A stretch of DNA of 64,000 nt from an uncultured Candidatus Saccharibacteria bacterium. GTDB taxonomy: Bacteria > Patescibacteriota > Dojkabacteria > B142 > OLB20. The stretch covers positions 235,168-299,167 of the forward strand of contig CAYWVD010000001.1 of assembly GCA_964461915.1 (NCBI GenBank), in the 5' to 3' direction. The position numbers were made by a program, and so were the translations under genes. Position 1 is the first letter of the stretch. Each line of letters starts with the position of its first letter. Below the pieces are notes generated by a model, which ran no database searches, had not been told where the DNA came from, and was given only the letters and a program-made list of their open reading frames with translations. Positions 34,716 through 44,608 of the stretch are shown here, in pieces.

Positions 34716-34862
34716 TAGGATTTAATATTTTATTGAAAAAGAATTTTATCGGGACGACAGGACTAGTTACGAACTGATTTCCATCTTGTTTAATAAGGTA
34801 TTATGCCTTGTTGATGAGCTAAAATGTAAATGGCAATTTCTATCAGAATTTTATAATATTAA

Positions 34863-35537: not shown

Positions 35538-35970
35538 TTACTACAAATATATCAAAATTATCGTGAATATAAAATGGGGGGACTGCAGGACTTGAACGGA
35601 TTAAATTCTTCAAAATGCCTGTATATTGGGCATTTCTAGCGTTTGTATATTTTGGGGTAATTTTTATGATAAATCTAATGCACTTTTTGTAAAGCTCGGT
35701 ATATCAAGCTTTTCTTAAAAACCGTACTGTTAAATCGGGGTGATCGTACTATGTACGAACGGATTCTCCCTCTCATTGATACCATTATCTCATATGTTAA
35801 AGAGTTTGAGTATAAGTGGAAGTTCCTTTTTGAGCTTCCTCAATTAGATTTAAGTTGTTAGGGCGATTGTTTATTATAATTCTGGGTTTAAAAATTACGG
35901 GTGCTTGATGAACATACTGATAATGCCTATACAGATAATTACATATGCTATTAAATATTAAAAACAGCAA

Positions 35971-36216
35971 TTAAGAGGAATAACTAGCCGTTAAAAATTG
36001 CTTTCCATCAAGATTATCAAATTGAAGGACTTTTGATACAGTAGCCACTGCTGAAACAGGTTCGCCAGAATCTTTAAAATAAACAGTATCGCCTTCACTG
36101 ATTCTATCCCAAGGGGCTATTCTGTTCTTATACCATCTTGATTCAATTGTTTTCTCGCCAGAGATAATCTTCGGAATAAGTTCCCACGATTTTTTCATTA
36201 TTGCGATATGATTCAT
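35971..36216 (-). CDS. Small hypothetical protein (possibly PUA/ASCH-like beta-barrel)
   Basis: 81-aa ORF at the edge of the accessory island, adjacent to the IS element. No motif recognised. Confidence 0.25.
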   Translation of the reverse strand: MNHIAIMKKSWELIPKIISGEKTIESRWYKNRIAPWDRISEGDTVYFKDSGEPVSAVATVSKVLQFDNLDGKQFLTASYSS

Positions 36217-36260
36217 TTTGCTGTTACATCTTCTAAATATTTACCTGTAAGTGACTTTTT

Positions 36261-37004
36261 ATTAGGGTCTTGTGAAGATTAGAGAGGATTTTGACTCAAC
36301 TCTTTCATCAACACTTTGTATATATTATCACTTCTGTGGTTAAAACACCACTCGGATTCTTTCAAATGTAAAATAAACTTATTTTTAGGCACTCCATTAA
36401 ATTGTGCTATTCTTCTTTTAGCATAACTCCAAAAACTTTCTATACCGTTTACATGATTTTTTCCACGAGCAAATTCATCCTTCGAATGATATATTCTGTA
36501 ATGCTTGTATCCATTTAAAACTAAACTATCATAGCTTGTCCAACCATCCGTATATATCGTACTATCCTCAAGTATTTTACCCTTAATTATCGGCATTAAC
36601 TGCTTCCTTTTACAATTCTTGACGATAACCGTATATACCTTACCATTACGCTTCAACAATCCAAATACAGGAACTTTACCTTTAGCTCCACGACCTCTTT
36701 TACCTCGTATTCTTTTAGCTCCAAAATATGATTCATCTGCTTCTATTTCACCTGATAACTTTTCTTCATTTTCTGTTAGTTGAAATATTCTTAATCTTAA
36801 TTTTTGATAGATATCTGAAATTGTTCTCCTTGAAATTCCGGTTAATTTACTGGTCTGAGTTGAGTCAAAATCCTCTGTAAAACACCTTAGAATCTGTCTA
36901 AATTTTGCCTCTGAAATCTTTGAACGGTTTGTGTACTTGTTTTTCATTGTCTTGCAAGGTATTTTACCACATTTACAACGTGCTATTCTTCACAAGACCC
37001 TAAT
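36261..37004 (-). mobile_element. IS1595-family insertion sequence (about 744 bp) with ~18-bp terminal inverted repeats; transposase CDS 36279..36947 on the minus strand
   Basis: Transposase has an N-terminal HTH/zinc region and a DDE_Tnp_IS1595-type core (TDGWTSYD ... NHVNGIESFWSYAKRR). Left end ATTAGGGTCTTGTGAAGA at 36261-36278 is a perfect reverse complement of TCTTCACAAGACCCTAAT at 36987-37004. Confidence 0.75.
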
Positions 37005-37268
37005 TATTATTTGCCTCTTTTCGAGTTTTAATTCAAAAAGTTTTGAGAAAGTTTTTTTCATTTAGTGAAGAATACAGATTATTAATAAATTTATCACTCG
37101 CTATTAGTGATGTCAAAGTTAGAAGATATTGTTCCTGACCTGTATTTCCCGCCATTTTCAATATGTTCCAACAAGACCCTCAACAATATTTACAACCATT
37201 GCCTTTCACCTTGTCAATTATATTGTCAATTAACTTGACAATTATTTTACATATCCATATAATGGATT

Positions 37269-38276
37269 ATGATAAATACTAAGTACAAACTAAGCCAAAA
37301 ACTCTTAGAAAATATCTCCTCTATTGAAAGACTCTACGGTCAATTAGAATCACAAGTAGTTCCGAAAGAATTACTTCTTAACCTAGAAGAACACAATCTT
37401 GTTAAATCATCCTTTTCTTCTAACAGTATAGAAGGTAACCCACTCTCTCAAGAAGAAGTTACTAATTTAATACTTGGAGGAAGAGTCCCGGCAAACAGAG
37501 ATGAAAAAGAAGTAAAGAACTACTTTAATATCCTAAAACAGATAGGGAAAGAATATGATACTTTGAATATAGATACCATACTTACTATCCACAAACAACT
37601 TTTGCAAGGAGTTGAGAATCAAATAGGTGGTGAGATTAGAAATAGTAAGGTTGTTGTAGGCAATCCTGCTCAGGATGGAAATATTGTTATCAAACATGAA
37701 CCACCAAAACATACCAAGGAAGAAATTACAAAACTTCTAGAGGAGTTAATAGAATGGACAAATATATCTGAGGAATTACCCATACTAAGAGCAGGAATAT
37801 ACCATCATGAGTTTGTATATATTCATCCTTTTGTAGATGGCAATGGTAGGACTTGCAGATTAACTACTACACTCCTTTTGAATAAGTTAGGATACAAGAT
37901 AAATAAGTATTTTATACTTGATGATTACTATGATATAGATAGAATACAATATTCTGACTCCTTACATTCTGCTGATAGTGGTGATAAGACAGAATGGTTA
38001 GAGTATTTTACAGATGGTGTTAAATATTCTTTACAATCTGCATTAGCTAAGATAGAGGAAGGACTAAAGAACATCTCTTTTGATATGCGACCTACAAACA
38101 GAGAGAAAGATGTTTTGGAATTAATAAAGAAGTACAAAGAGATTACTTCTTCTGATGTTGCAAAGGATCTTGATGTGTCTAGGCAACAGGCTTTTAATCT
38201 TTTAGATGGTTTAGTTTCAAAGGGTTATTTAGAAAAACAGGGTAGTACTAAAAATAGTTTTTATACCTTAAGGTAG
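37269..38276 (+). CDS. fic: Fic/DOC family protein (AMPylation-type Fic motif) with N-terminal inhibitory-helix motif and C-terminal winged-helix-like domain
   Basis: Canonical Fic motif HPFVDGNGRTCR. N-terminal SNSIEGN fits the (S/T)xxxE(G/N) inhibitory motif. Confidence 0.85.
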   Translation: MINTKYKLSQKLLENISSIERLYGQLESQVVPKELLLNLEEHNLVKSSFSSNSIEGNPLSQEEVTNLILGGRVPANRDEKEVKNYFNILKQIGKEYDTLNIDTILTIHKQLLQGVENQIGGEIRNSKVVVGNPAQDGNIVIKHEPPKHTKEEITKLLEELIEWTNISEELPILRAGIYHHEFVYIHPFVDGNGRTCRLTTTLLLNKLGYKINKYFILDDYYDIDRIQYSDSLHSADSGDKTEWLEYFTDGVKYSLQSALAKIEEGLKNISFDMRPTNREKDVLELIKKYKEITSSDVAKDLDVSRQQAFNLLDGLVSKGYLEKQGSTKNSFYTLR

Positions 38277-38325
38277 TTTTTGTTTCCAAAGGATACGATT
38301 TTGCTCTGTTATCGAAACTAAATAA

Positions 38326-39531
38326 TTTATACCAACCACAATATTTATACACGAACATCTCTTAAAAGCATATCTCTCGTCTAGAAAAAACAAACGAAAT
38401 ACCATTAATGCACTAAAATTTGAAATTAACTTAGAACAAAATCTCTCTAATCTACAAAACGAGATATTACTTCACACCTATAAACCATCTAGATCAATAT
38501 GTTTTGCTGTAACATATCCAAAAATTAGAGAAATATTTGCTGCAGATTTTAAAGACAGAATTGTACATCACTTACTAGTATCATATTTAGAACCATATTT
38601 TGAAAAAAGATTTATCTACTCATCTTTTGCCTGTAGAAAAGAAAAGGGAACTCTTTATGCAACTACGTATATACAGAAATGTTTAAGAAAAGTAACTAAA
38701 AACTCTACTAAAAAAGCCTACTATGGACAGTTTGATATTAAAAGCTTCTTTACAAGTATAGATGGGAAAATTTTAGAAGAGATCTTAATTAGTAATATAC
38801 AAAAAGGGTTTCATGGTAGTTTACAAAATGAATTAATATGGTTAACAAAAGTAATACTAGAAAACAATCCCACTCAAAACTATACAGTAAGAGGAGATAT
38901 TAATTTACTCAAACAAGTACCCTCTCATAAGTCTCTTTTTAATGTTTCTAAAAACAAAGGTCTACCGATAGGGAATTTAACATCGCAGTTTTTTGCCAAT
39001 ATATATCTAAACGAATTAGACCAGTATGTAAAAAGAGAATTAAAAATTTCCTACTATACTAGATATGTAGATGATATGGTTGTACTCTCTGATAACCTTG
39101 ATGATGTGTATATATGGAGAGAACAGATAGATACATTTTTAAAGAAAAAACTTAAACTTACTCTACACCCTAAAAAAGATAAATATGGCTCTGTATACTC
39201 TGGAATAGACTTTCTAGGGTATGTAATTAAGCCTAGATATACTCTCTCAAGAAAAAGGGTCGTAGGTAATCTAAAAAACAAACTAAAACTTTTTAATCAA
39301 GGTCTTTTACTAATATCACAAAATCAAAAACAGATTACCCTACCTCTCCATACACCCCCTTCGAAAGAGGAAATTTCTAAAATGTTAGCTATGATTAATT
39401 CTTACTATGGTCATTTTAGACATGTTAACTGTTTTAATTTAAGAAAGGATATATATGAGAATCACTTTGGTTGTTTAAAAGAATACTTAGAGCCTGTAGA
39501 ACAGTATTCATATTTTAAATTAATAAAATAA
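38326..39531 (+). CDS. Diversity-generating retroelement reverse transcriptase; the frame is open from 38326 but has no ATG/GTG/TTG before the RT domain (the ORF track shows only the 39076 ATG fragment)
   Basis: Frame-1 translation gives RT motifs DRIVHHLL, YGQFDIKSFFTSIDGKILEEIL, GLPIGNLTSQFFANIYLNELD (the DGR-specific IGxxxSQ instead of QGxxxSP), YTRYVDDMVV (YxDD), and the thumb/X-like motif INSYYGHFRH. It sits next to the Avd-like gene and the TR. Confidence 0.8.
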   Translation, partial: FIPTTIFIHEHLLKAYLSSRKNKRNTINALKFEINLEQNLSNLQNEILLHTYKPSRSICFAVTYPKIREIFAADFKDRIVHHLLVSYLEPYFEKRFIYSSFACRKEKGTLYATTYIQKCLRKVTKNSTKKAYYGQFDIKSFFTSIDGKILEEILISNIQKGFHGSLQNELIWLTKVILENNPTQNYTVRGDINLLKQVPSHKSLFNVSKNKGLPIGNLTSQFFANIYLNELDQYVKRELKISYYTRYVDDMVVLSDNLDDVYIWREQIDTFLKKKLKLTLHPKKDKYGSVYSGIDFLGYVIKPRYTLSRKRVVGNLKNKLKLFNQGLLLISQNQKQITLPLHTPPSKEEISKMLAMINSYYGHFRHVNCFNLRKDIYENHFGCLKEYLEPVEQYSYFKLIK

Positions 39532-39536
39532 TATAT

Positions 39537-39896
39537 ATGGGTAGTACAAACAATTTGCCTTTGTACAGGAGTGTGTACAAACTTTTAATATATCTTTACT
39601 CTTTAATTAGTAATTTCAAGAAAGAGTATAAATATACATTGGGTCAATCGATAACGGATTGTGCTTGGGTTGTATTAGATAGTGTAATTATTGCTAATAC
39701 CCTACCTAATTTAAAAAAGAAAGAGTATATATTAAAAGCTAGTAATCATTTTGATATGCTTAAGACTCGTATTAGGGTAGCACATGAATTAAAACTAATA
39801 GATAACAGAAGATATACTTTCATTGTTAATCAGTTTGAAGATATAGGTAAGATGTTGAATGGTTGGTATAGATGGAGTAGTAAAGCCCAAAGCTAA
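39537..39896 (+). CDS. avd: Avd-like DGR accessory protein (four-helix-bundle family)
   Basis: 119 aa, predicted helical. The C-terminal IVNQFEDIGKMLNGW matches the conserved ending of the four-helix-bundle/Avd family. Lies between the RT and the TR. Confidence 0.6.
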   Translation: MGSTNNLPLYRSVYKLLIYLYSLISNFKKEYKYTLGQSITDCAWVVLDSVIIANTLPNLKKKEYILKASNHFDMLKTRIRVAHELKLIDNRRYTFIVNQFEDIGKMLNGWYRWSSKAQS

Positions 39897-39899
39897 GTA

Positions 39900-40020
39900 C
39901 CGGGATACACAACGAACTCCGTTGTTTGTATTTGTCTTATTGTTGTTGTTGGTATTTCCATTGTTTAGGTTTACGTTCCATGCGTTTGTTGAATTGTTGG
40001 AGACCTCCGAGCTAGACCAA
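39900..40020 (-). repeat. DGR template repeat (TR), 121 bp, adenine-bearing sense strand is the minus strand
   Basis: 121-bp near-identical copy of 40310-40430. All 23 mismatches are T in the TR (plus strand), which is A on the minus strand. The TR in target frame encodes 12 AAC/AAT codons. Confidence 0.9.
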
Positions 40021-40236
40021 CGCTAACATTTTTCTACTAACTTGTTTACCACTGTAAAACTGATTAATATTTCAACTAAAAAGTTTAACTGTATTTAAAT
40101 ACCTATTAGGTGTAGTAGAACGGACTTAAATATTTGGGCTTTCTCTACTATCTATTGCCTACAGTGAGGTTAAATAGTAGACTCCATGCACTAAGATATT
40201 ACAATTCTAATTAGAAAATATCAAGTATCAAGAGAT

Positions 40237-40267
40237 TAAAAAACAACCCCTCCACTTTGTGGAGGGG
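40237..40267 (-). terminator. Rho-independent terminator downstream of the DGR target gene (minus strand)
   Basis: Perfect 9-bp stem CCCCTCCAC/GTGGAGGGG with a 3-nt loop at 40247-40267, followed on the minus strand by TTGTTTTTT. Confidence 0.5.
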
Positions 40268-40303
40268 TAAATTAAAAATTACTAAATTACTAAATTCTGG
40301 TTT

Positions 40304-41587
40304 TTAGTCCCGGGATACACAACGAACTCCGTTGTAAGTATTCGTCTTAGCGCTGTAGCTGGTACCGCCAAAGTTTAGGTAGACGCGCCATGCGTAAGCC
40401 GAATAGTAGGAGACCTCCGAGCTAGACCAATAGAGAGTATCTGTAACAAATGCTGCTGCAGATTCCTCATCTATACCCGCCTGGTTATATATCCCATCTA
40501 TATATGCTTGCATCAATTCTTTTTGAGAAGGTAAATACCAATCTGTTCTTCCTGCAAAATCTAATGTCGCACAGTAGTTTATTGCTAAACCGCAATCAGA
40601 ATCTAAACCATCATATGAACTTCTAGGTATTGAAGTAAAGTAATCACATGAAGCCATAGTAAAAATATTTGACATAGTACCTTGGTCTGCAGACCAATAT
40701 ACTCCAGTTCTCTCATCTCTCCATGCTATATCCTCTCCTACTGACATATTACTCCACTCTGACTCTTCTCCTTGATAGTCATCAGTTAATGTCCCTCCCC
40801 ATCCAAGATAGTCACCTCCAGCATAATCATCATATGTACTGTATTGCATATTTGTAAAATCTATAGGTGTTGGAGGTGTATATGTACCTGTTAGAAGAGT
40901 ACCTGAGTCAGAGTAAAACTTCTTTCCACTAATTACCTCATCTACTCTTGCATCTCCCAAAAATGACCAAGTACCTGTTAGTAATGTTCCAGAATCAGAA
41001 TAGAACTTCTTACCACTCATTACATCTGTAACTTGTGCATCACCTAAATATGATACTACTGGAGGAGTATATGTCCCTGTCTTTAATGTACCTGAATTAG
41101 AGTAAAATGTCTTACCTGCTAGTACATCACTAGTACTTGCATTTCCTCTGTATGTTACTGTAGGTACAGTAGGTAGTTTAAGAGTACCTGCTAAAAGTTC
41201 ATCATCCTCTGAGTAAAACAGTTTCCCCTCTAATACATCCTCTGCAGATGCATCACCTAAAAATTCAAACTCTTCAGGAACATATGTCCCAGTTTGTAAA
41301 TCTCTAGAATTGTTGTAAAAAGTTTTACCCTCTAATACATCACTCGTAGTAACAGTACCACTAGGAATCCAATTAGAAGCCTCTTGTACCTTTTCAACCA
41401 TCGAATCTAAATCAACATCAGAAAGTTCTTGTGTATATCCTAATTCTACTAACTTACCATATATACCCCTAACATCTTCCTCTAATTGAGATACATCAAC
41501 TTCTTTACTTGGTTTGAAAAAGAGAAACATTATTACTGCTGTAATAACGACACCTAGTAGAAATGAAAAAATATGTTTTTTATTCAT
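40304..41587 (-). CDS. DGR target (variable) protein: N-terminal signal anchor, five ~22-aa tandem repeats (DVLxGKxFYSxSGTLxTGTY), C-terminal DUF1566/C-type-lectin-like domain carrying the VR
   Basis: N-terminal TM (FSFLLGVVITAVIMFLFF). The repeats are VLEGKTFYNNSRDLQTGTYVP, VLEGKLFYSEDDELLAGTLKLPT, VLAGKTFYSNSGTLKTGTYTPP, VMSGKKFYSDSGTLLTGTWSF and VISGKKFYSDSGTLLTGTYTPP. The C-terminus TDWYLPSQKEL ... YWSSSEV ... AWRVYLNFGG ... GVRCVSRD fits the DUF1566/CLec pattern. Confidence 0.85.
   Translation of the reverse strand: MNKKHIFSFLLGVVITAVIMFLFFKPSKEVDVSQLEEDVRGIYGKLVELGYTQELSDVDLDSMVEKVQEASNWIPSGTVTTSDVLEGKTFYNNSRDLQTGTYVPEEFEFLGDASAEDVLEGKLFYSEDDELLAGTLKLPTVPTVTYRGNASTSDVLAGKTFYSNSGTLKTGTYTPPVVSYLGDAQVTDVMSGKKFYSDSGTLLTGTWSFLGDARVDEVISGKKFYSDSGTLLTGTYTPPTPIDFTNMQYSTYDDYAGGDYLGWGGTLTDDYQGEESEWSNMSVGEDIAWRDERTGVYWSADQGTMSNIFTMASCDYFTSIPRSSYDGLDSDCGLAINYCATLDFAGRTDWYLPSQKELMQAYIDGIYNQAGIDEESAAAFVTDTLYWSSSEVSYYSAYAWRVYLNFGGTSYSAKTNTYNGVRCVSRD
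40310..40430 (-). repeat. DGR variable repeat (VR), the last ~40 codons of the target gene
   Basis: See TR. The VR codons at TR-Asn positions now read Y, T, A, S, Y, S, G, F, Y, R, Y, A, Y, Y and so on. The identical 3' flank (coding sense) contains the hairpin ACAACG-GAGTT-CGTTGT. Confidence 0.9.
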
Positions 41588-41689
41588 TTAATATATATAT
41601 ATAACAAATTAATACTTCTTTAATGTTTTAATGGTATCAGAATGTAAAAAATAAAACAATACAAGGGGTGGGTCATAGGACAATACTAT

Positions 41690-42424
41690 GGGTCTAGACT
41701 AGTTTAGAGAGGATTTTTTCTAAACTCTGAAAGAAGTATATCATAAATATTTTCATTTCTCAAATTCCATCTGAACTCTGACTCTTTTAAATGAAGATGA
41801 AACATTTTATCATTTAATCCATTAAATTTTGCTAACCTTCTTTTAGTATAACTCCAAAACGATTCTATCCCATTAATGTGTGTCTTACCACGAGCAAATT
41901 CATCATCACTATGATACACACGATAATGGTCATATCCGTTAAGAATTAATCCATCATAACTTTTCCATCCGTCTGAATATATTGTAGAACCTTCTAGTAC
42001 TTTACCTTGGATTATCGGCATCAAATGCTCTCTTTTACAATTCTTAACGATGTTTACATAAACCTTACCATCCTGTTTAAGAATACCAAATACAGGAGTT
42101 TTTCCCGCTGCTCCACGTCCTCGTTTACCTCTTACACGCCTTGCTCCAAAGTATGACTCATCTACCTCAAACTCTCCTAACTCTGGTGTATGAGCAACAC
42201 TCATCTGAGCTATACGCACTCTGAAAAGATAGTAAAGTCTGTTTACTGTATTACGATTAACTCTAGAATATTTTGATGCTTTTGTTGCGGTTTCATCTTC
42301 GGCAAAATACTTTAAAATTTCCCTAAATTTTCTCTCCGAAATATGTGCTTTATTTAAATACTTATTTCTTATTGTCATAGACTTAATTATACGAGTTTTT
42401 ACTCTATTAAACTAGTCTAGACCC
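41690..42424 (-). mobile_element. Second, distinct IS1595-family insertion sequence (about 735 bp) with 17-bp terminal inverted repeats; transposase CDS 41704..42378 on the minus strand
   Basis: Transposase is a paralog of the first (roughly 60% identical by eye; same motifs SDGWKSYD, THINGIESFWSYTKRR). Left end GGGTCTAGACTAGTTTA at 41690-41706 is a perfect reverse complement of TAAACTAGTCTAGACCC at 42408-42424. Confidence 0.75.
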
Positions 42425-42708
42425 TATCTTTTCACTTGTGGAGGAACGGAACAAGTGAAAATACTGTTTGTTCCCCTCCTATAAATAATAAAAATCAAAA
42501 TTTCTTCCTTTATTTTAATCCTTCAACACCTTTTTCTCAAAAATTTTCAGAAAAATATGTCGGACAACGTTCCGGCATATACGATGTTGCGAGTGAGCAT
42601 AGCAGTATAATTTTTCTCACCGCCTAAGCGAGCGAAGCAATATGGGCGAAACGACGAGGTACGAGGAGTGTAGCCGTATATGCCGTGTTATATGATGTTT
42701 TGGCCAAT

Positions 42709-43401
42709 TCACTCTTCATTACTTTTACCCCAATTGCATTTTTGACATAGTGTTTGTAAATTTTCCAGACTTGTTTTACCTCCTTTTGAAAAAGGTTTTA
42801 TATGGTCAATGTGTAAAACAGTTCCATGATGAGTTGCTGGGCTTTTTCCACAATAGACACAGCAGAAATTATCGCGTTGCAAAACTTTGAGTCTTAATTT
42901 TAGTGGAATATCACGTTTTAATTTTGAATCTTTCGTGTTGATAGGCGTATTTGGAACCTCAGATTTTTGCTTTGTTTCTTCAACAACAGATTCCCCGGTT
43001 TTATATTCGAGAAATTTCATGCAAGCGTTTGTCCAGCCATTAAATCTTGCTTTGTATGTTGAGTATGAATATTTGGGCTTAACTAAATCCCATTCGGTTT
43101 TTGATGGCCTGTGGCCTAATTTTTTCCAAACTTTATCTAATTCCTCAAACAGCTCTTTCTCGGATATAAAACTTCGATCAGTTTCTCGTGGTTTAAGTTC
43201 TACGCCTATTGAATCTAGCGCCTTTTGCCAAGTTCCAAATACGCCGAGTACTTTTGTACCCTTACAAAGTTTTGCAACTTTATCAAATTCGTGCCGAGTG
43301 AATTTTGTATAATCAAAAAGCCCAGCAACTCTTTTAAGTTCTTTTATGACATCCTCTTTGGATATAGTGTCTATTCTTTTTCTGGAAAATTTATAACTCA
43401 T
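42709..43401 (-). CDS. HNH endonuclease-domain protein
   Basis: C-terminal HNH motif CCVYCGKSPATHHGTVLHIDHIKPFSKGGKTSLENLQTLCQKCN. Confidence 0.6.
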   Translation of the reverse strand: MSYKFSRKRIDTISKEDVIKELKRVAGLFDYTKFTRHEFDKVAKLCKGTKVLGVFGTWQKALDSIGVELKPRETDRSFISEKELFEELDKVWKKLGHRPSKTEWDLVKPKYSYSTYKARFNGWTNACMKFLEYKTGESVVEETKQKSEVPNTPINTKDSKLKRDIPLKLRLKVLQRDNFCCVYCGKSPATHHGTVLHIDHIKPFSKGGKTSLENLQTLCQKCNWGKSNEE

Positions 43402-43555
43402 GTTTAAATAGTAATTGAATTGGCCAAAATTTCATATAACTGGTTACTATACGAAGTGTTTTCATAATTCATACAATTTATTGTACTAATTGCGAACTAC
43501 TTTTGGTATAATAATTCAAAATTAACTATCTGTATTTTACCAAACCCTTGCAAAT

Positions 43556-44368
43556 ATGAAAAGCGAACTGGACAGAACCATACGAGAACTAAAAATACGC
43601 AATTACAGCCCCAAGACTATAAAAAGTTATACAAATGGGCTCAGTAAATATTTCAGCTACAAAAGAAAAAACATTGATAAGCTAGATACAAACAACATTA
43701 AAGACTTCCTACTCTACTGCAAAGATAAAAACATTTCAGCCAAAACGAGAAATCAGTATCTTAATGCTATCAAATACTATTATTACAATATCATCAATGT
43801 AACAGATAAAATTGATGTAAAATCCGCTAGACGAACTAAAAGCCTTCCAGTTATCCTGAGTAGATCCGAGATTAAAGCTTTGATCGAAGCCACAAACAAC
43901 CAAAAACATAAAATGTTGCTTGCAATAGCGTATGGAGCTGGGTTACGAGTTAGTGAAGTTGTAAACCTTAAAGTGAAAGATGTAAATCTTGAGGACCTAA
44001 CACTGCATATCAAACATGCAAAGGGAGACAAAGACAGAATAACCATTCTTTCAGATAGTATAAAAGACAAGTTAAACAAGATCATTAGTACTAAGGAAGC
44101 AAATGAATATGTTCTTTCTAGCGAAAGAGGTGGGAAACTCACAACCCGTACAGCTCAAAAGATTTTCTCAAATGCACTTAAAAAGACTGGTGCCAAAAAG
44201 GATGCTTCTTTTCATTCCCTCAGACACAGCTTTGCTACTCACTTGCTGGAAAACGGCACAGATATTCGTTATGTACAAGAATTATTAGGCCATGTAAACA
44301 TCAGAACTACTCAAAGATACACCCAAGTCACAAATCCTCGCTTACGAAATATAAAGAGTCCACTTTAA
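43556..44368 (+). CDS. int: Tyrosine site-specific recombinase/integrase
   Basis: Catalytic R..H..R..Y context (FHSLRHSFATHLL ... LGHVNIRTTQRY). N-terminal SAM-like domain. Sits adjacent to the tRNA cluster. Confidence 0.8.
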   Translation: MKSELDRTIRELKIRNYSPKTIKSYTNGLSKYFSYKRKNIDKLDTNNIKDFLLYCKDKNISAKTRNQYLNAIKYYYYNIINVTDKIDVKSARRTKSLPVILSRSEIKALIEATNNQKHKMLLAIAYGAGLRVSEVVNLKVKDVNLEDLTLHIKHAKGDKDRITILSDSIKDKLNKIISTKEANEYVLSSERGGKLTTRTAQKIFSNALKKTGAKKDASFHSLRHSFATHLLENGTDIRYVQELLGHVNIRTTQRYTQVTNPRLRNIKSPL

Positions 44369-44531
44369 CCAAATTATTATTGTATATAGATCTTACAGGA
44401 CTTGAACGGTGTAAATACCTACATGGTAGGCTTTCCCGTTAACTTACTTGGATTTGGGTAATTTTGATACATGAGGTGTATCACACTGATAAAGTCTATT
44501 TATCAACACTTTTTTAGGGTCTCGTCTTAAT

Positions 44532-44608
44532 TGGTCGGAGCGGTGAGACTCGAACTCACGACCTTACGCACCCCATGCGTACATTCTAGCCAACTGAACT
44601 ACGCTCCG
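44532..44608 (-). tRNA. tRNA-Pro (anticodon GGG), CCA encoded
   Basis: Reverse complement folds: acceptor cggagcg/cgctccg, D-arm gttc..gaat, anticodon stem tacgc/gcgta with loop auGGGgu, T-arm gtgag-ttcgagt-ctcac, A, CCA. Confidence 0.8.

Follow-up and report, generated by a model that had tools for sequence, protein, structure and literature searches.

Two insertion sequences around a Fic gene and a diversity-generating retroelement: probable latecomers to a tRNA-Pro island of Candidatus Dojkabacteria

In a 64-kb stretch of an uncultured Candidatus Saccharibacteria genome (GTDB lineage Dojkabacteria; contig CAYWVD010000001.1, positions 235,168 to 299,167), a Fic gene and a complete diversity-generating retroelement (DGR) lie between two compact insertion sequences (IS) in direct orientation. 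The arrangement raises the question of whether these two elements, here called IS-left and IS-right, carry the genes between them as a transposon or inserted into an older island. We refer to the whole stretch as the window and to the contigs with which it was compared by L-numbers (L001 and so on). Our reading, to which we assign a probability of about 0.7, is that the Fic-DGR block is an old cargo of an island at a tRNA-Pro(ggg) gene, that the two IS entered independently and were then rearranged, and that the pair does not form a transposable unit. Such an arrangement is in large part ordinary, and an adjacent integron-like platform is the more interesting material. The window has a G+C content of ~30%, and those of its homologs that carry names belong to Candidatus Dojkabacteria, a member of the candidate phyla radiation (CPR, or Patescibacteria).

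An IS pair of this kind could stem from a contig wrongly joined via repeated IS copies, in which case the sandwich would be absent from any single molecule. These IS families do break many metagenome assemblies, and many of the matches are to contigs of ~1 kb or fall at the end of a contig. However, independent Logan assemblies (L001-L003, L056) span IS-left, the Fic-DGR block and IS-right, with both IS and all junctions 100% identical, which makes a misassembly unlikely. Furthermore, an 808-kb NCBI contig carries the identical target protein of the DGR, and each IS occurs only once in the 64-kb window. We consider such an artefact barely credible.

Two different insertion sequences without target-site duplications

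IS-left (36265-37000, minus strand) measures 736 bp, has a perfect 14-nt terminal inverted repeat (IR), GGGTCTTGTGAAGA, at both ends and encodes a transposase of 222 aa (36279-36947, minus strand; PF12762, E=9e-31; NF033547, 180 bits). IS-right (41690-42424, minus strand) measures 735 bp, has a perfect 17-nt IR, GGGTCTAGACTAGTTTA, and encodes a transposase of 224 aa (41704-42378, minus strand; PF12762, E=3e-29; NF033547, 167 bits). Both transposases score well above the NF033547 cutoff of 75 bits, and both elements combine the ISXO2/IS1595-type DDE transposase of the IS1595 family with its compact format of ~700-750 bp between terminal IRs. In size and in the lengths of IR and duplication, they fit the IS1016 subgroup as given for ISApl4 (PMC12561309), and both are new members of this IS1016-like group. 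Like ISApl4 and its relatives, they fall within ~710-740 bp, carry one ~220-aa DDE transposase gene with its stop codon inside the IR, have perfect IRs of 14-17 nt and belong to families with A/T-rich duplications of 7-9 bp, here 7 bp (PMC12561309).

The initial annotation of this locus had described two compact IS1595-family elements with perfect terminal IRs and minus-strand transposases. This description holds (14/14 and 17/17 nt in the IRs) with small coordinate corrections: its start of IS-left, 36261, includes 4 extra flank bases that extend the palindrome by chance, as other copies stop exactly at GGGTC...GACCC. In addition, the 24 nt beside the left IR of IS-left (36279-36302) recur in inverted form at 36857-36880, ~120 nt from the right end, with 96% complementarity. 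The inverted copy falls in the N-terminal coding region of the transposase and may be an internal transposase-binding site.

The two elements are distinct, as had also been annotated. Their transposases are 61% identical, their IRs have only the terminal GGGTCT in common, and their DNA can be aligned without long gaps, with a BLAST identity of ~71% over the 3' two-thirds of the transposase gene. Between 37000 and 41690 they bracket, in agreement with the annotation, the Fic gene and the complete DGR, comprising reverse transcriptase (RT), the accessory variability determinant bAvd, the template repeat (TR) and the target gene with its variable repeat (VR).

Both IS families normally leave target-site duplications (TSDs) of 7 bp. 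In the IS-left family, five other copies have perfect 7-bp TSDs (TTATTTA, TATTTTT, TATTGTA, TTCTATA and ATAGATA) and one further copy matches at 6/7 positions; in the IS-right family, pairs of contig ends gave four (AAATACA, TTGCATA, TATATTA and TACCACT). In the window neither IS has a TSD, the plus-strand flanks being TTTATTA and TAATTAT for IS-left and ATACTAT and TATCTTT for IS-right. Nor is there a duplication around the whole two-IS unit, whose outer flanks are TTTATTA and TATCTTT. Neither a pair of simple insertions nor a single composite one is therefore recorded in the flanks, and the individual TSDs by which the annotation would have recognized independent insertions are not there. 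With 7 bp being usual, the lack of TSDs at both IS argues for IS-associated deletion or recombination at a later time, as opposed to simple insertion.

Copies of IS-left elsewhere behave in a similar way. Those with a 99.5% identical transposase adjoin enolase, SDR, ddl and relA-like genes as well as a different DGR, and the copies in L014, L070, L072 and L075 also lack TSDs. Half-flanks of the copies in L070, L072 and L075 are held in common with other copies (compared with L004). In L075, the end of a cassette array is followed by IS-left and then by the 81-aa open reading frame (ORF) that adjoins IS-left in the window, with the junction 28 nt nearer the ORF. Flank exchange or adjacent deletion is common at these IS, which most simply accounts for the absence of duplications in the window. 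The IS1016 subgroup likewise shows multi-copy bursts, in which the duplication-free copies are those in rearrangements (PMC12561309). Separately, the near-identical IS-left of L072 (153-2734), which has no target duplication, adjoins another DGR-like locus (bAvd, a 123-aa ORF and RT), the RT of which is only 38% identical to that of the window.

Swapped half-flanks of this kind would also suit a cassette exchange, in which two homologous crossovers, between the IS-left and IS-right copies already in a Xer-type island and those on incoming DNA, brought in the Fic-DGR block; the IS would then have been portable homology arms and not transposon ends. Both IS of the window have chimeric flanks, and the L075 order, which contains no DGR, is a possible recipient configuration. 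However, no donor with IS-left beside Fic was found, the 28-nt difference means that the IS-left/81-aa-ORF junctions of L075 and the window do not go back to the same parental insertion, and the IS at the array ends of L004, L030 and L075 is of the IS-left type, not the IS-right type. Import by such an exchange is, in our view, unlikely.

The reading suggested by the sandwich itself is a compound or pseudo-compound transposon, in which one transposase would act on the outer ends, or IS-IS recombination would release a translocatable unit, so that the 6.2-kb segment moves whole. The two IS, which are intact and directly oriented, bracket exactly Fic and the DGR, they share the terminal hexamer GGGTCT, and the absence of an individual TSD at either IS recalls the IS copies of Tn7560, an IS1016-type pseudo-compound transposon (PMC12561309). 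Tn7560, however, has two identical ISApl4 copies as its ends and its movement has been shown (PMC12561309), whereas the two IS of the window came at different times, are not the same IS, as the divergence of the IRs beyond 6 nt and of the transposases indicates, and have not been seen to move as a unit. At only ~70% identity, their DNA is too dissimilar for the IS26-style recombination of translocatable units despite the direct orientation. No TSD flanks the unit, and sister islands with a 98% identical DGR lack IS-left. We found no second instance of IS-left, Fic-DGR and IS-right together, and exact look-ups of the two transposase proteins returned the window locus only. Judged from its sequence, the sandwich lacks each testable hallmark of a compound transposon; we regard this origin as highly improbable, and the suggestion in the annotation that Fic and the DGR move as an IS-bounded module did not hold up against the lack of a unit TSD, of other instances, of identical IS and of IS-left in the L057 and L044 blocks.

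The Fic-DGR block as island cargo

Relatives of the block allowed us to order the two IS. The junction of the DGR side with IS-right, ATAGGACAATACTAT followed by the element, recurs in L042 (96% identical), L057 (91%) and L039 (85%), and because it is common to lineages of 85-96% identity, this junction is old. Its far flank in L039 and L057 differs from that of the window and lies inside a truncated serine-recombinase gene. In L018, the same sequence runs without an IS across the insertion point (...ACAATACTAT directly continued by TTACATTAG...). IS-left, on the other hand, is absent from the Fic-DGR islands of both L057 and L044. IS-right would thus be an old resident of the island and IS-left a recent arrival specific to the lineage of the window. 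For L039 the comparison covered the first 9.1 kb of the 46-kb contig, and L057 was used in its place further on.

The closest DGRs are those of L044, L057 and L058-L061, with an amino-acid identity of 99.5% for the L044 RT. The stretch homologous to L044 (37149-40229) is 96% identical in DNA, while L057 is 98.4% identical to the window from 37149 to 41116. The L057 island reads, in order, OLD-like ATPase, type I restriction-modification (RM) genes, helix-turn-helix (HTH) gene, small ORFs, DUF2958, Fic, RT, Avd, TR, target, IS-right and truncated large serine recombinase. Its 98% tract stops inside the target gene (about 41116), and the remainder up to IS-right is 91% identical, which argues for homologous exchange of the DGR core regardless of the IS boundaries. 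Two further left flanks adjoin Fic-DGR in L048 and in L017/L062/L065, where homology to the window begins at 37131 and 37208, respectively. In L020, L045, L046 and L052-L055, RT, Avd, TR and target lie beside groEL-groES with neither Fic nor an IS, and homology extends from 38339/38357 to 41664.

The block, or the DGR alone, is therefore found without either IS in L017/L018, L020, L045, L046, L048 and L052-L055. The comparison with relatives that the annotation had proposed thus yielded blocks without IS-left or without both IS and no IS-left/IS-right unit elsewhere, and its second suggestion, insertion of the IS into an older DGR island, agrees with the DGRs that lack both elements, the old IS-right junction and the lineage-specific IS-left. 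In two JGI contigs with an identical target protein (L052/L054, compared with L053/L055), the segment comprising a 187-aa gene, RT, Avd and TR appears inverted with respect to the target. We did not use this inversion as evidence, since the L052/L054 contig ends in a 121-nt inverted duplicate and the inversion may be an assembly artefact. No recombination cores of the GTTAT/ATAAC type were seen at the edges of the Fic-DGR block on reading the sequence, and a scan of viral contigs for the constant part of TR/VR and for the attI-side sequence returned nothing.

The left edge of the block carries a trace of a third element. Just upstream of the Fic promoter lies a 49-nt remnant of an IS1595-like end (37131-37179, minus strand; ...GTTCCAACAAGACCC), which we call IS-X. 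Longer forms occur in L048, L017 and L018, and homology among the different contexts stops exactly at GACCC. This remnant stands at the block's left border in the window and in L044 and L048, and further upstream in L017. A second IS-X remnant is located in L018 (3878-3975), 45 nt beyond the target gene, and is the same as that before the Fic promoter (L048 4455-4560, window 37131-37179). The block of the L018 lineage is either bracketed by two IS-X remnants, or tandem, or circular.

These remnants speak for an older IS-bounded module: Fic-DGR would have been captured between IS1595-type copies, with IS-X at its left end and IS-X or IS-right at its right end, and would have travelled in that form from island to island, the present IS-X remnant and IS-right being what survives of it. 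The window, L044, L048 and L017 all have an IS-type end (...CAAGACCC) at the block's left edge, the second L018 remnant lies close to the other edge, the IS-right junction is conserved across the 85-96% identical lineages, and three different left flanks adjoin 98% identical blocks. The remnant is, however, shorter than 150 nt and has no partner end. In the window, L039 and L057 alike, DGR and IS-right lie by tRNA-Pro or by an island attachment (att) junction, so that a single inherited island explains the junction; the end of the tract of high identity between the window and L057 in the target gene, rather than at an IS, fits homologous exchange better than transposition; and the DGRs without Fic are stable beside groESL. 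We hold a module of this kind to be improbable.

The island to which we attribute the block would extend over 35735-44531, as the remains of one island, or of two that were fused, at tRNA-Pro. The tRNA-Pro(ggg) gene itself (44532-44608, minus strand) has its 3' end abutting the integrase module described below and is the proposed proximal boundary. For the distal att side, we propose a 136-nt element (35735-35870, minus strand) that ends as a pseudo-3' end of tRNA-Pro (...GATCACCCCGA). Copies of this element with 88% identity occur in L004, L057 and L032. The L032 copy directly adjoins the tail of the integrase module and the L057 copy the truncated serine-recombinase end, both attP-like or tandem junctions, and the L004 copy closes a comparable island. 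In L039, the end comprising DGR, IS-right and serine recombinase abuts a genuine tRNA-Pro(ggg).

The locus resembles other tRNA-targeted islands in the recombinase gene by the tRNA 3' end, the accumulation of IS, the tandem accretion and decay with defence-type cargo (RM, OLD, Abi, Fic) and, putatively, the pseudo-3'-end repeat at the proposed far boundary and the attP-like junctions in other contigs. It differs from the usual ones in its very short att core, in the lack of a recovered empty site and in that large serine and Xer-like tyrosine recombinases occupy the same tRNA-Pro site in different lineages.

The proposed sequence of events is as follows. Fic and the DGR would be long-standing cargo of the island at the tRNA-Pro(ggg) 3' end, the remains of which cover about 35735-44531. 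IS-right would have come first and inserted at a point between the island recombinase and the DGR, beside the target gene's upstream end; IS-left would have followed, left of Fic and in the window's lineage alone. IS-associated deletion or IS-IS recombination may then have taken the arms of the island, leaving chimeric flanks on both IS. The arms lost would correspond to those seen in L057, with RM and DUF2958 genes on the left and the serine recombinase on the right, and their loss would have fused the Fic-DGR core to the neighbouring Xer-type integrase/cassette platform and to the distal end of the island. The IS pair would then be the scars of island erosion.

Several observations weigh against this history. 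The pseudo-3' end, CACCCCGA at 35735-35745, is the acceptor of an L039-type tRNA-Pro and not that of the window's own gene, with which it shares a core of only about 4-5 nt (TCGG/CCCGA). An empty island site was not found among the genome contigs searched with the flanking 224-aa protein, so we infer the boundaries. The stretch from IS-left to the IS-X remnant (130 bp, 37001-37130) has no homolog anywhere. The conserved IS-right/DGR junction, together with the IS-X remnants, which are present on both sides in L017/L018, leaves room for an older IS-mediated capture. Finally, the flanks may have been lost either by deletion or by homologous recombination between IS.

The neighbourhood of the distal end contains further pieces of such islands. 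The 81-aa ORF between the 136-nt element and IS-left (35971-36216, minus strand) is a truncated gene without a Pfam or NCBIfam match; its first 74 aa equal the start of a longer ORF in L075 (1904-2218), and L032 has the truncated version as in the window. On the other side of the 136-nt element, a diverged remnant of an integrase-module tail (35577-35734, plus strand) aligns with 44369-44531, with CAGGACTTGAACGG, TTTGGGGTAATTTT and TATCAA as common blocks. Beyond it, a second pseudo-tRNA-like end, AGTTCGTAACTAGTCCTGTCGTCCCGA at 34751-34777, is similar to L004 6245-6272. The tail remnant and this second end flank the 224-aa gene, which suggests that they are the remains of an older tandem island. 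The 21-nt repeat CAGGACTTGAACGG (35586 and 44396) had been considered as a tRNA-Leu-derived att site of an 8.8-kb island. We rejected it, as it is not a tRNA end and belongs to the diverged second tail. The true tRNA-Pro 3' end is not repeated elsewhere in the window, and Rfam scans of 33-47 kb, L042 and L044 returned tRNAs only.

The retroelement and its Fic neighbour

The RT gene (38341-39531, plus strand, with the frame open from 38326) is recognized by RVT_1 (E=3e-17) and contains the motifs YVDD and SQFFANIYL. It is followed by bAvd (39537-39896, plus strand; PF22296, E=8e-17) and by the TR (39896-40020), which is in sense on the minus strand, antisense to RT and avd. The target gene (40304-41587, minus strand) encodes an N-terminal membrane anchor, five repeats of ~30 aa and a C-terminal Lcl_C/DUF1566 domain containing the VR (40306-40430, minus strand), which forms the 3' end of the gene and reaches its stop codon. 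A GC-rich hairpin or terminator of 10 bp lies directly downstream of the VR, at 40246-40268 (minus strand).

The 125-nt repeat pair of TR and VR has 23 of its 24 mismatches at adenines of the TR (read on the minus strand), with 23 of the 49 adenines substituted. In target variants from other samples (n=4, ~96% identical), 16-19 residues differ, 13-15 of them within the last 45 aa. This adenine bias, together with the concentration of differences in the last 45 residues, indicates that the DGR is real and was recently active in the lineage, the evidence for diversification being the comparison between samples. The locus thus has an adenine-specific TR/VR pair, RT and Avd by the TR, a C-terminal VR followed by a hairpin, and signs of diversification. 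RT and Avd would act in the usual manner of DGRs, copying a minus-strand TR RNA, with errors specific to adenines, into the VR of a surface protein that has a membrane anchor and an Lcl_C/DUF1566 domain.

Upstream in the target gene, four to five diverged tandem repeats of ~87-111 nt (40884-41345) encode the motif GDA.V.DV..GK.FYS.SG.L.TGT, and their number differs among relatives, whose targets measure 391-487 aa. In the TR-VR spacer, a promoter-like site (40204-40231, minus strand; 10/12, a consensus match only) lies just past the terminator hairpin of the target gene and might serve as promoter of the TR RNA. In L042 (1-1120) and L044 (11890-12030), from a 96%-identical sister lineage, an IS481/IS3-like element has inserted inside this site. 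It has an rve-type transposase, TG...CA ends and a 5-bp duplication, GTATC; the corresponding site of the window (about 40229-40233) is intact. We had considered TATCAAGTATCAAG at 40224-40237 as an excision footprint and rejected this, as L042 and L044 show the window to be the uninterrupted site of the IS481-like insertion.

The RT frame of about 390-400 codons is intact and contains no ATG, GTG or TTG before 39076 (codon ~250), and this holds throughout the clade (L017, L045, L047, L057). In an alignment, the ATG of the RT from L021, which is more distant, falls on the ATA at 38341; L057 has ATT in frame instead, owing to a 1-nt difference. In consequence of the missing canonical start codon, gene callers return fragments of 151-359 aa. 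The RT of the groESL-linked DGR of L020 (88% identical) has a stop 77 codons past the conserved N-terminal LLKAY motif and is probably a pseudogene.

DGRs of CPR bacteria with targets of the DUF1566/Lcl_C type, which has a C-type-lectin fold, were reportedly described by Paul et al. in 2017. The DGR of the window is a typical CPR DGR with three peculiarities. With such DGRs (see also Roux et al. 2021, PMC8144416) it shares RT, Avd and TR, a VR at the C-terminus of a surface-protein target, the strict adenine bias, an AAC/AAT-rich TR, the hairpin after the VR and the CPR host. It differs from them in the TR that is antisense to RT and avd, in the clade-wide lack of a canonical RT start and in the Fic gene that recurs upstream in several lineages.

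This Fic gene (37269-38276, plus strand; PF02661, E=1e-20) encodes a C-terminal winged HTH domain (MarR_2/TrmB). The Fic/DOC motif HxFx(D/E)GNGRxxR is present as HPFVDGNGRTCR, and the SNSIEG motif of an inhibitory helix can also be read in the translation. A sigma-70-like promoter, TTGACA-17-TATAAT (37235-37263, plus strand; 12/12 consensus match), precedes the gene, is flanked by TTGTCAATTA repeats and is conserved in L017, L044 and L048. This class II-like Fic protein is encoded 64 nt upstream of RT and on the same strand in at least 4 flank contexts (L017, L044, L048, L057-L062), and sister DGRs with similar RT identity have no Fic. Fic could be a functional accessory gene of the DGR or its neighbour by mere linkage.

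An integron-like platform beside IS-right

On the far side of IS-right, the island module that abuts the tRNA is built around a Xer-like tyrosine recombinase of 270 aa (43556-44368, plus strand; PF00589, E=2e-42). Its best match is the XerA-like NF040815, with 218 bits against a cutoff of 220; TIGR02249 gave 194 against 265, in two stretches, and NF011946 121 against 435. The protein is thus below the cutoff for integron integrases and lacks the IntI-specific insertion. It is 100% identical in many metagenomes, and the module as a whole (43428-44531), often together with the tRNA, shows 97-100% identity across at least 7 otherwise unrelated contexts.

About 125 bp upstream of the recombinase gene, at an attI-like junction (43428-43456, plus strand; ...TAAC followed by WGGTTACTATACGAAG), the conserved DNA of the module meets variable cassettes, with the same break point in 7 contexts. 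Beyond it lie genes for HNH, DUF2726, HinfI R-M, NUDIX and ddl (L004, L023, L026, L029-L032, L075), and L030 equals L004 minus 2.5 kb exactly at the TAAC core. In the window, a cassette (42687-43440) contains an HNH endonuclease gene (42709-43401, minus strand) between 25-nt IRs. We rejected the interpretation of these IRs as the ends of a small transposon, since the DUF2726 cassette of L023, of the same design, and the attC-like sites fit a cassette system better.

An attC-like site (42562-42693, minus strand) consists of R'' ATATAAC, L'' ACGGCATATACG, L' CGTATATGCCG, a GAAC spacer and R' GTTGTCC. Equivalents occur in L023, L004 and L075 (GCCTAAC...GTTAGGC in L075), with fold z-scores of -4.7 in L023 and -3.2 in L004, and of about 0 to -1.4 for the copy of the window. 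The far flank of IS-right (42425-42561, minus strand) follows the last cassette of this neighbouring array, and the sequence beyond R' is similar in L023 and L004/L075 (GTTnnnCGAcATaTTTtTGAAAAA...).

The platform resembles integrons in the divergent recombinase gene, the fixed junction at a GTT/AAC core, the precise presence or absence of cassettes (L004 against L030) and the cassettes followed by palindromic R''-L''...L'-R' sites. Unlike integrons, it has a XerA-like recombinase of 270 aa, some of its cassettes have flanking IRs of 25-27 nt, and the tRNA-end module seemingly defines the ends of the island. The attI junction and the attC-type sites of an integron are thus present, and an IntI-type integrase with its additional domain is not. 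As a tentative and rather doubtful proposal, in Dojkabacteria tRNA-Pro(ggg) islands a Xer-like, non-IntI recombinase might both run an integron-like array and set the island ends, with dispersed IS1016-like copies as portable homology arms that shuffle larger modules such as Fic-DGR from island to island. If this were true, what the two IS beside the DGR record would be an exchange of modules guided by IS and not a transposition.

For the reading that we prefer, in which Fic and the DGR are old cargo of a tRNA-Pro island, the locus offers a caution: two directly oriented IS that enclose an attractive cargo do not have to form a transposon, even when neither has a TSD of its own. It also provides two practical leads, namely, from a CPR lineage, a Xer-like recombinase accompanied by integron-style cassettes and a conserved RT frame without a canonical start codon. 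The spread of DGRs among CPR bacteria is poorly documented, and our data indicate that this DGR, often together with Fic, rides tRNA-Pro islands, which IS elements erode and reshuffle rather than carrying the DGR themselves.

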